From a virus: DNA of 64,000 nt. Under the pieces are notes generated by a model. It saw nothing but the letters and a program-made list of their open reading frames with translations, did not search any database and was not told the origin of the DNA. The position numbers and the translations under genes are program-made. Of this stretch, positions 28,952 to 36,842 are shown one piece after another. Positions within the stretch are counted from its first letter, which is position 1, and each line of letters opens with the position of its first letter. The DNA is taken from the IMG/VR virus record IMGVR_UViG_3300045012_000053, positions 1-64,000 of that record. One strand, given 5' to 3'.

Positions 28952-28980
28952 TTGACAAACGTCCCGACTTGTGGTAGGAT
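28952..28980 (+). promoter_or_regulatory. Promoter of the tRNA array
   Basis: TTGACA-17-TAGGAT with TG extension, just before the first tRNA. Confidence 0.85.
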
Positions 28981-28989
28981 GTTTGCAGT

Positions 28990-29065
28990 GGTGAGGTTAG
29001 TGTAGCGGTCAGCACGGGAGACTGTGAATCTCTCGGCACGGGTTCAAATCCCGTTGGGACCGCCA
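28990..29065 (+). tRNA. tRNA-His(GTG), poorly paired acceptor stem
   Basis: GGAGA-CTGTGAA-TCTCT; T arm ACGGG-TTCAAAT-CCCGT; CCA. Confidence 0.7.
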
Positions 29066-29187: not shown

Positions 29188-29580
29188 ATGAAATGTGCTT
29201 GGAGATGTTGCAGTGAAGAAGTTGTTGGTCGTAAGAACAAAAAATTTTGTACCAAGAATTGTTCTGTAAAACATCATGTTGCTCAGAATCGTACTCAGTA
29301 TAAGATTCGAGCAGTTAAGTTGTTTGGCGGTAAGTGCTCTCGATGCGGCTACAACAGATGTATTCGAGCACTTCAATTCCATCACGTTGACCCGACTTTG
29401 AAAAAGTTTGGCATAGCGGCGAAGGGATTTACGAGGTCTTGGGAGAAGTACAAAGAAGAATTATTTAAGTGCATTCTACTGTGTGCAAATTGTCATGCAG
29501 AAGAAGAGCACCGACTGCTAGGGTGTGGCTCAACTGGTACAGCAGACGACTGTTACTCGTCCAGTGCGAAAGCACATTGA
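29188..29580 (+). CDS. HNH endonuclease (3' end runs into tRNA-Asn)
   Basis: CSRCGY...LQFHHVDP...CILLCANCHAEE. Confidence 0.9.
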   Translation: MKCAWRCCSEEVVGRKNKKFCTKNCSVKHHVAQNRTQYKIRAVKLFGGKCSRCGYNRCIRALQFHHVDPTLKKFGIAAKGFTRSWEKYKEELFKCILLCANCHAEEEHRLLGCGSTGTADDCYSSSAKAH

Positions 29581-30608: not shown

Positions 30609-30683
30609 GCATGAGTAGCCAAGTGGTAAGGCGTTCGTCTGCAAAACGAATACACGCTGGTTCGATTCCAGCCTTGTGCTCCA
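30609..30683 (+). tRNA. tRNA-Cys(GCA)
   Basis: TTCGT-CTGCAAA-ACGAA; TCCA. Confidence 0.92.
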
Positions 30684-30756
30684 AGTTTGTCGGTCCCTAC
30701 ACGTTAGGCAAACCGAATCGTTCTGAGGCTCGGTCAACGAAAGACCGTCCATCTTT

Positions 30757-31070
30757 TTGGTAGCGTAGACGAACGCGGCGTAAGGAAGGCTCATAACCTG
30801 ACCCTTGTTTGCTACGCCGAGGAAGTTCAGACCACGCCTCAACACGTAACTGTGGAAGTTGCAGGCCGCGTAAGCGGACGGGTAAGGCCCGATGTATCGG
30901 TGAGAGCCATCACAAGGTGAGCGTAGATAGTCGATACCATTCAAGTCGGGGCACTCCCTTACGGTGCAAGTTCAAATAGGACCTGAGTGCTTGTTGAGCA
31001 TGCTGACGGTCGGGTTGAACGCTTAGAGGAATGTTCGTCCTCGACAGAAGTCTGGCTATAGCGCAACCAA
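30757..31070 (+). ncRNA. rnpB: RNase P RNA (compact; no P13/P14 or P18 seen)
   Basis: GAGGAAGTTCAGAC pairs with ACAGAAGTCTGGCT (P4 with bulged U); P1, P2, P3, P5-P9, P12, P15-P17 traceable; P6 CTCAACA/TGTTGAG; L15 GGU. Confidence 0.88.
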
Positions 31071-31080
31071 ATAATTTTTC

Positions 31081-31155
31081 GGGCTGCTAGTGTCAATGCA
31101 GCACAGCGGACTTTTAATCCGACGAGTGTTGGTCCAAGTCCAACGCGCTCCACCA
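31081..31155 (+). tRNA. tRNA-Lys(TTT)
   Basis: CGGA-CTTTTAA-TCCG; ACCA. Confidence 0.82.
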
Positions 31156-36358: not shown

Positions 36359-36796
36359 ATGATGAAGATATGCAATATTTGCAAGGAACGCGAAAGTCTT
36401 CCTTACGGTTATAAATGTCGAGTATGTCATTGTGAGTATCAAAAAGCATACCACAAGAATCACCCACAAAGCATAGCGAAGTCTCACAAGGCTAGACAAA
36501 AGCATCGCAGAGATTTAATTAAAGAGCGTAAGAATGCGCCTTGTTTTGATTGCGGAGTGCGCTATCCTTGGTATGTGATGGATTTTGACCATGTGCGGGG
36601 CGAGAAGAAATTCAATTTATCGATTGCAAGCAACAAGATGTTTAGTGTGGATGTAATTAACGAAGAGATTGAAAAGTGTGACTTGGTTTGTGCCAATTGT
36701 CACCGTATCAGGACTTTTACAAGAACTCAATTGCCCGATAGTGTAACTGGAAACACGCGTGGCTCTGAACCACGAAACTCTAGGTCCGAATCCTAG
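36359..36796 (+). CDS. HNH endonuclease (3' end runs into tRNA-Gln)
   Basis: CFDCG...MDFDHVRG...CDLVCANCHRIR. Confidence 0.9.
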   Translation: MMKICNICKERESLPYGYKCRVCHCEYQKAYHKNHPQSIAKSHKARQKHRRDLIKERKNAPCFDCGVRYPWYVMDFDHVRGEKKFNLSIASNKMFSVDVINEEIEKCDLVCANCHRIRTFTRTQLPDSVTGNTRGSEPRNSRSES

Positions 36797-36814: not shown

Positions 36815-36842
36815 GCCTCGCAGACGCGAGGCTTTTTTATTT
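36815..36842 (+). terminator. Rho-independent terminator ending the tRNA array
   Basis: GCCTCGC-AGAC-GCGAGGC + T tract. Confidence 0.85.

Follow-up and report, generated by a model that had tools for sequence, protein, structure and literature searches.

An RNase P RNA of bacterial type A layout encoded within the tRNA array of an uncultured tailed phage

The DNA analyzed in this study, referred to as the window, comprises the initial 64 kb of an IMG/VR virus record. The record is 101,360 bp long, is complete, and has direct terminal repeats. The proteins encoded by the phage include a large terminase, an SU10-type portal, a primase-polymerase, and a UvrD-type helicase, and a tyrosine recombinase gene located outside the window (Table 1) indicates that the phage may be temperate or may use the recombinase otherwise. 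Its closest cultured relative, the soil Acidobacteriota phage Tunturi_3 (a Tunturiibacter phage), is very distant (26% TerL identity), and a search of Tunturi_3 with the Rfam model RF00010 gave no match.

Between positions 28995 and 36807, the window contains an array of 28 tRNA genes, each of them on the + strand. As an earlier model-generated reading of the same DNA (hereafter the sequence-only reading) had stated, the tRNAs encode CCA (28/28), and the spacing is tight: 11 spacers are 10 nt or shorter, and the shortest, a single Thr-Thr spacer, measures 1 nt. The array is preceded by a promoter-like site and followed directly by a hairpin resembling an intrinsic terminator (Table 1). The pre-tRNAs carry U at N-1 in 16 of 28 cases and G in none (0/28). 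Their leaders share the consensus UUUUCUGU before position +1, with G at -2 in 19/28 and U at -1 in 16/28, and 3' of CCA the trailers mostly read AGUUU or AUUUU, similar to an RNase E-type site; these common leaders and trailers suggest that the whole array is processed by one code. Open reading frames located within the array encode HNH endonucleases, whose 3' ends overlap tRNA-Asn and tRNA-Gln, or carry function-less annotation, the latter kind being represented by several ORFs; no array ORF matched RNA-binding or RNase P protein families.

The sequence-only reading had placed an RNase P RNA between tRNA-Cys and tRNA-Lys, and this gene position was borne out (Table 1). The downstream tRNA-Lys(UUU), found by Rfam and missed by Aragorn, starts 6 nt past the end of the RF00010 match and 10 nt past the last P1 pair (31070). 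Part of the 73-nt spacer on the upstream side (30684-30756) is conserved where relatives have the same gene order, with CCA followed by AGUUUGUCGG, CGAAUCGUUY, and a hairpin with an AACGAAA loop. The stem of this leader hairpin covaries, and the hairpin is kept in approximately 10 of 12 aligned relatives sharing the Cys/Leu - RNase P RNA - Lys layout; it may serve as a leader or processing signal, or may be a separate small RNA.

Table 1. Features of the RNase P RNA locus, its tRNA array, and the phage genome (window coordinates unless marked otherwise).
Feature	Position	Strand	Remarks
RNase P RNA gene, 318 nt, bacterial type A layout, trimmed specificity domain	30757-31074	+	RF00010
tRNA-Cys(GCA), upstream neighbor	30609-30683	+	CCA encoded; ends 73 nt before RNase P RNA
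tRNA-Lys(UUU), downstream neighbor	31081-31155	+	CCA encoded; Rfam tRNA match 40.9 bits
Promoter-like site TTGACA-17-TAGGAT, TG before second hexamer	28952-28980	+	consensus match only; ahead of first array tRNA
Intrinsic-terminator-like hairpin and T-run	36815-36842 (hairpin 36815-36832)	+	directly 3' of last tRNA (Gln, ends 36807)
Leader hairpin, invariant AACGAAA loop	30731-30747	+	about 10 nt 5' of RNase P RNA
Two HNH endonuclease ORFs	29188-29580; 36359-36796		inside array; PHROG 2255, E ~1e-24
Tyrosine recombinase (Phage_integrase)	genome 73415-73840	-	PF00589, 46.7 bits; outside window
P1	30757-30767 / 31059-31070	+	double changes in 9/11 pairs
P2 GACGAAC/GTTCGTC	30768-30774 / 31033-31039	+	99% paired, 6/7 pairs covary
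P3 hairpin CGGCGTA/TACGCCG	30776-30819 (stem 30776-82 / 30813-19)	+	2 basal pairs 100% paired
CR-I: J3/4 GAGGAA and P4 5' strand	30819-30832	+	bulged U at 30827
P6 pseudoknot	30839-30844 with P17 loop 30992-30997	+	88% paired, compensatory changes in 6/6 pairs
P7 CGTAA/TTACG	30845-49 / 30959-63	+	94% paired, covarying
P8 hairpin	30850-64	+	100% paired, covarying
P9 hairpin, GUAA loop	30865-79	+	97-98% paired, covarying
Reduced specificity-domain interior (P10, internal loop, P11, P12, joiner)	30880-30957	+	
P10	30881-82 / 30956-57	+	
P11	30888-92 / 30946-50	+	91.5% paired, 5/5 pairs covary
P12 hairpin, variable	30894-30937	+	84% paired, 6/6 pairs covary
Joiner CAUUCAAG	30938-45	+	family consensus CAUUCRAG, most members
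P5 3' strand, J5/15 GCAA, P15-P16-P17 arm with L15 internal loop	30964-31020	+	
L15	CAAAUAG 30973-79; GGGU 31012-15	+	GGGU holds the CCA-binding GGU
J15/2 with CR-IV AGAGGAAU (31025-32)	31021-31032	+	no P18 hairpin in window copy
CR-V: J2/4 ACAGAA and P4 3' strand (31050-31057)	31044-31058	+	alignment, covariation, RNAalifold

RNase P RNA is the ribozyme that trims the 5' end of new tRNAs. Using Infernal and Rfam 15 with permissive filters, the bacterial type A model RF00010 (RNaseP_bact_a) was matched over its whole length (model positions 1-367 of 367) with 84.6 bits, the E-value being 3.4e-26 for the window region and 1.4e-27 in a search of the whole genome. Since the gathering cut-off of RF00010 is 100 bits and the window copy lies below it, a default gathering-threshold Rfam scan of the window misses the gene and reports tRNAs only. 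The other two models proposed for this check by the sequence-only reading behaved differently: bacterial type B (RF00011) gave no match at E<=10, and archaeal RF00373 reached 35.3 bits against a cut-off of 84. This outcome contradicts the impression that the RNA was more archaeal-type than E. coli-type. The minimum-free-energy fold of the window copy was no more stable than those of shuffles (z -0.62), which is a weak argument where a pseudoknotted RNA is concerned.

Among terminase-based relatives taken from IMG/VR (43-78% identity), a full-length RF00010 match was found in 9/22, and in 5/7 of the near-complete ones. A family-specific pattern built on CR-I and the P8 loop matched 48 viral contigs, and 30 further records with full-length RF00010 matches were found; the family comprises 40 copies on IMG/VR phage contigs, 34 of them distinct, with lengths of 260-351 nt. 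The RF00010 cut-off is passed by 11 of the 40 copies (100.2-131.8 bits). The clade carrying the gene consists of uncultured tailed phages of approximately 70-120 kb, including several complete genomes with direct terminal repeats. The gene is absent from the complete relatives G009 and G011, and is thus accessory and dispensable in the clade. In 36 loci, all tRNAs within 1.5 kb share the strand of the RNase P RNA; 34 of these loci hold 7-21 such tRNAs, and in 17/36 a tRNA begins no more than 9 nt downstream of the RNase P RNA (often 2-9 nt). In one member, L056 (G002), the actual 5' end (UUGGUAGCGUAGACGAAC) is located upstream of the start of the Infernal match, whose boundaries are wrong owing to a large P3 insertion.

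Starting from the window copy, the type A structure with its P4 and P6 pseudoknots was transferred to a MAFFT alignment of the 34 distinct sequences, and covariation was counted on this sequence alignment, which is not structure-aware and therefore yields conservative counts. Base-pair cells were paired in 89.4% of cases, compared with 34-39% when the 3' partners were slid by 1-3 columns, and compensatory double changes occurred in 71 of 82 pairs, P4 and the P6 pseudoknot included. The covariation score was 0.559 versus 0.08-0.10 in the slid controls, and no shuffle reached any of the observed measures (0/500). RNAalifold, blind to the mapping, independently recovered P4, P7, P8, P9, P10, P11, P15, and P16. 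Covariation across 34 copies shows purifying selection on the RNase P fold and not a decaying capture. With a full-length RF00010 match, a complete phage genome, and a fold kept in 34 homologues, the proposal that positions 30757-31070 encode a phage RNase P RNA is upheld.

These data also bear on the explanation that the gene is a non-functional passenger, namely a remnant of host rnpB, an attP-type fragment for rnpB integration, or an artefact of assembly or binning. Such an origin could be read into the presence of a tyrosine recombinase (PF00589) in the phage and into the score of the window copy under the Rfam cut-off, yet the gene is full length rather than a 3' fragment, it lies 42 kb from the recombinase gene, its covariation in 34 distinct copies reflects purifying selection on the fold, and several of the genomes that carry it are complete, with direct terminal repeats. 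A further point against a passenger comes from cellular genomes. The family signature pattern gave 116 matches over 185,579 species genomes, 114 of which were rejected as chance matches or ordinary host rnpB CR-I segments (<=21 bits with the family profile). The remaining two, similar over the full length, are located on contigs CABMCB010000059.1 (L242) and CABMCB010000038.1 (L252) of a single metagenome-assembled genome named 'uncultured archaeon LFW-28'. Besides a phage-type RNase P RNA, these contigs (99.9 kb and 36.7 kb) carry the terminase of the present phage group (36% and 42% identity, respectively) and 19-21 tRNAs, which identifies them as phage contigs mis-binned into an archaeal MAG. 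No cellular donor lineage was identified among the 185,579 species genomes. On the grounds of full length, covariation, complete genomes with direct terminal repeats, and the 42-kb distance to the recombinase, the attP, pseudogene or relic, and artefact readings were excluded, and a passenger of any kind appears scarcely credible.

Judged by its motifs, the catalytic domain is canonical, with the elements for catalysis and CCA binding all intact. The helices P2, P3, P4, P6, P7, P9, P12, P15, and P16 and the L15 GGU listed in the sequence-only reading are located where proposed and are backed by covariation, with two corrections. In P15 (GTTCA/TGAAC), four pairs are supported and the fifth (A-U) is not; in P6, proposed as 30838-44/30992-98, six pairs covary, and the first of the proposed pairs (C82-G242) competes with P17 and pairs in 22/34 sequences. 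In CR-I, GAGGAA, the bulged U, and the following C are invariant in the 34 sequences (GAGGAAnnUC). The covariation of P4 and P6 in homologues, suggested earlier as a check, was found in 6/8 pairs of P4, which is 100% paired, and in all six pairs of P6, where UCAACA/UGUUGA is replaced in other members by GAGUC/GACUC or UAGAC/GUCUA. P3 varies in length across the family, and its distal part is variable. In CR-V, 8 of 15 positions are invariant (A288, C289, A292, A293, G298, U301, A302, and the base that pairs with A68); in CR-IV, the motif AGAnGAAU is nearly invariant across the family. P15 is 100% paired, with 4/4 pairs covarying, and P16 (92% paired) and P17 (94% paired) both covary. The J5/15 GCAA motif contains the invariant A212 and A213. 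The GGU of L15 pairs with the 3'-CCA of tRNA, and in the 34 sequences the CGGGU on this side of the loop is invariant and the CAAAUAG nearly so.

The specificity domain differs from that of the model. Its interior spans 25-60 nt, against 101 model positions, and in the window copy and the best-scoring relatives Infernal deletes the positions of P13/P14, J11/12, and J12/13; the gap between P11 and P12 on the 5' side is reduced to 1 nt. The failure of the sequence-only reading to find P13/P14 and P18 thus reflects model segments that Infernal itself deletes. Neither P13/P14 nor a CR-II/CR-III module that would read the tRNA elbow was recognizable in any member of the family. In the place where CR-II/CR-III would be, the family carries a conserved internal loop with UAAGG on the 5' side, opposite which A 30953 is invariant and CU 30954-55 nearly invariant, and most members also have the CAUUCRAG joiner; the joiner is absent from the shortest members, e.g., L105. 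In bacterial RNase P, CR-II/III contact the D and T loops of tRNA (PMC4919922), and the loss of CR-II/CR-III together with P13/P14 should therefore reduce affinity and specificity.

The P18 hairpin is absent from the window copy, in which the model segment of 24 positions is reduced to 0, and from most copies. Six relatives (L051, L114, L107, L115, L119, and L133) have a hairpin at the P18 position (alignment columns 373-411), which in L051 and L114 is a GNRA hairpin, and many members have an extra, often GNRA-capped, J2/4 hairpin between P2 and the P4 3' strand (columns 429-470). The window copy has neither. As both hairpins are present only in some members, these peripheral elements appear to be gained and lost freely.

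Among known RNase P RNAs, the bacterial type A (E. coli M1 RNA encoded by rnpB, T. maritima P RNA; RF00010) is the best-scoring model and is matched end to end. The phage RNA shares with it the catalytic domain P1-P6 and P15-P17, CR-I/IV/V, the bulged U in P4, the P6-L17 pseudoknot, and the L15 GGU, as well as the order of P7-P12. It differs in lacking P13/P14 and CR-II/CR-III and, in the window copy, P18, in its length (318 nt compared with 340-420 nt typical of bacterial type A RNase P RNAs), and in being encoded by a virus, within a tRNA array, by a genome that carries no rnpA as its partner. RNase P RNAs of archaea retain CR-II/CR-III and function together with four to five proteins; the phage RNA keeps neither of these regions, and its only feature in common with archaeal type A (RF00373) is the lack of P13/P14 and P18 (PMC4919922). 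The minimal Pyrobaculum-type RNase P RNA (type P/T) has a reduced specificity domain and relies mainly on the catalytic domain (PMC4919922); in contrast to this type, from which nearly the whole specificity domain is missing, the phage RNA keeps covarying P7-P12 that are bacterial in sequence.

The gene for RNase P RNA is considered to belong strictly to cells and organelles. Our literature search found no publication on a phage-encoded RNase P RNA, and the only virus-encoded RNase P-like RNA found was the candidate from orthopoxviruses (camelpox), which shows some similarity in secondary structure only and does not cleave pre-tRNA in vitro (PMC3001073). Unlike that candidate, the phage RNA is a homologue on secure statistical grounds and has every core motif. 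When four family members were compared by BLAST with 50,697 GenBank phage records, no match was obtained, and an exact 31-mer search in IMG/VR was likewise negative. A survey of huge phages lists tRNAs and tmRNAs without mentioning RNase P (PMC7162821). Similarly to the tRNA arrays and tmRNAs of large phages, the RNA described here is a host-like non-coding RNA among many tRNAs; it would differ from them in being of a ribozyme type that acts on tRNA precursors and is not a substrate of translation.

The simplest and most likely role of the RNA, as far as sequence can tell, would be to cut the phage's own polycistronic pre-tRNAs together with host RnpA. According to this proposal, an RNA descended from bacterial type A RNase P RNA would be inherited within the clade of ~70-120-kb tailed phages and transcribed as part of a ~7.9-kb transcript of the tRNA array. 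Given its same-strand location in the array and the close tRNA-Lys, the RNA most likely forms part of the array transcript and is freed from it as the tRNAs are processed: cleavages that mature the tRNAs on either side would also excise the RNase P RNA, and its 3' side would be set where RNase P cuts the 5' end of tRNA-Lys. The released RNA would fold into a catalytic domain (P1-P6, P15-P17, P4 with the bulged U, L15 GGU) joined to a specificity domain of P7-P12 only and, with host RnpA, would cleave the 5' leaders of the 28 tightly spaced, CCA-encoding pre-tRNAs. The outcome would be tRNA-maturation capacity either added to that of the host enzyme or made independent of it.

This proposal builds on a demonstrated homology, on a fold that selection has kept, on the place of the gene in the genome, and on the intactness of the elements for catalysis and CCA binding; from these we infer expression, the processing route, the use of host RnpA, and catalytic activity. 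The promoter-like site before the array and the terminator-like hairpin after it would fit a single transcription unit, and CCA-encoding tRNAs with short spacers and an N-1 base that is never G would fit as substrates. RnpA proteins are interchangeable between bacterial species, and by itself the catalytic domain is able to cut pre-tRNA in the presence or absence of RnpA, at lower rate and affinity (PMC4919922). Against the proposal stand the score below the cut-off, the trimmed specificity domain, the missing P18, the dispensability of the gene in some relatives, and the precedent of the inactive orthopoxvirus RNA. Considering both sides, we assign a probability of approximately 70% to the whole explanation, i.e., a phage RNase P catalytic subunit transcribed with the array that matures phage pre-tRNAs together with host RnpA.

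The protein partner can also be viewed differently. The observation that no rnpA is visible, made earlier for the window, holds for the complete 101,360-bp phage genome, in which a profile search for rnpA (PF00825) found none even at E<=1. The RNA might accordingly be an active ribozyme independent of host RnpA, acting alone in vivo or with an unrecognized phage protein, its specificity domain being tuned to phage pre-tRNAs. Replacement of the specificity domain by a family-specific conserved module (UAAGG loop/A/CU, CAUUCRAG), the common consensus of the pre-tRNA leaders, and the several function-less ORFs inside the array would be in line with such an enzyme. However, in vivo the P RNAs of bacteria depend on RnpA, the array ORFs match no family of RNA-binding or RNase P proteins, and CAUUCRAG is missing from the shortest members such as L105. 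In the T. maritima structure, the RnpA-binding regions are reportedly P15, J18/2 (CR-IV), and J2/4 (CR-V), and it is these regions that are best conserved here. An RnpA-independent or phage-protein-dependent enzyme is therefore possible but unsupported, and we consider it unlikely.

Conservation of the catalytic core likewise argues against a decoy or regulator that would soak up host RnpA or pre-tRNA and thereby stop host tRNA maturation or time the supply of phage tRNAs. A protein sponge would have no need of the L15 GGU, the J5/15 adenines, or the bulged U of P4, yet all are invariant in the 34 sequences, P4 pairing is 100% conserved, and sequestration of RnpA would also block the phage's own 28 tRNAs. 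Although a trimmed specificity domain could lower catalysis and keep protein binding, and the inactive RNase P-like RNA of orthopoxviruses has been considered in such a role (PMC3001073), we regard a decoy as quite improbable. More speculatively, the clade may have evolved a dedicated sub-type of RNase P RNA with a new structure, in which the otherwise universal elbow module was swapped for a small family-specific one and substrates are read mainly via the acceptor stem, CCA, and U-rich leader; it would serve dense arrays with spacers as short as 1 nt and be independent of host RNase P RNA during infection. We put this forward as a tentative idea that is doubtful as matters stand.

If the RNA matures phage pre-tRNAs with host RnpA, the translation-related functions carried by phages would extend to a ribozyme. 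This raises the question of whether phages with dozens of tRNAs are limited by tRNA 5'-end maturation or whether infection compromises the RNase P of the host. The family also offers natural, minimized P RNAs of the bacterial type (260-351 nt) with which the need for the specificity domain could be gauged. For viral annotation, the family shows that standard Rfam thresholds overlook such genes. In two loci (L050 and L052), Aragorn reported a 'tmRNA' (tag AADASGSNGAF; 1299-1596, - strand) that covers tRNA-Lys and the 3' portion of RNase P RNA and is almost certainly a false positive arising from a tRNA-like end beside a structured RNA.
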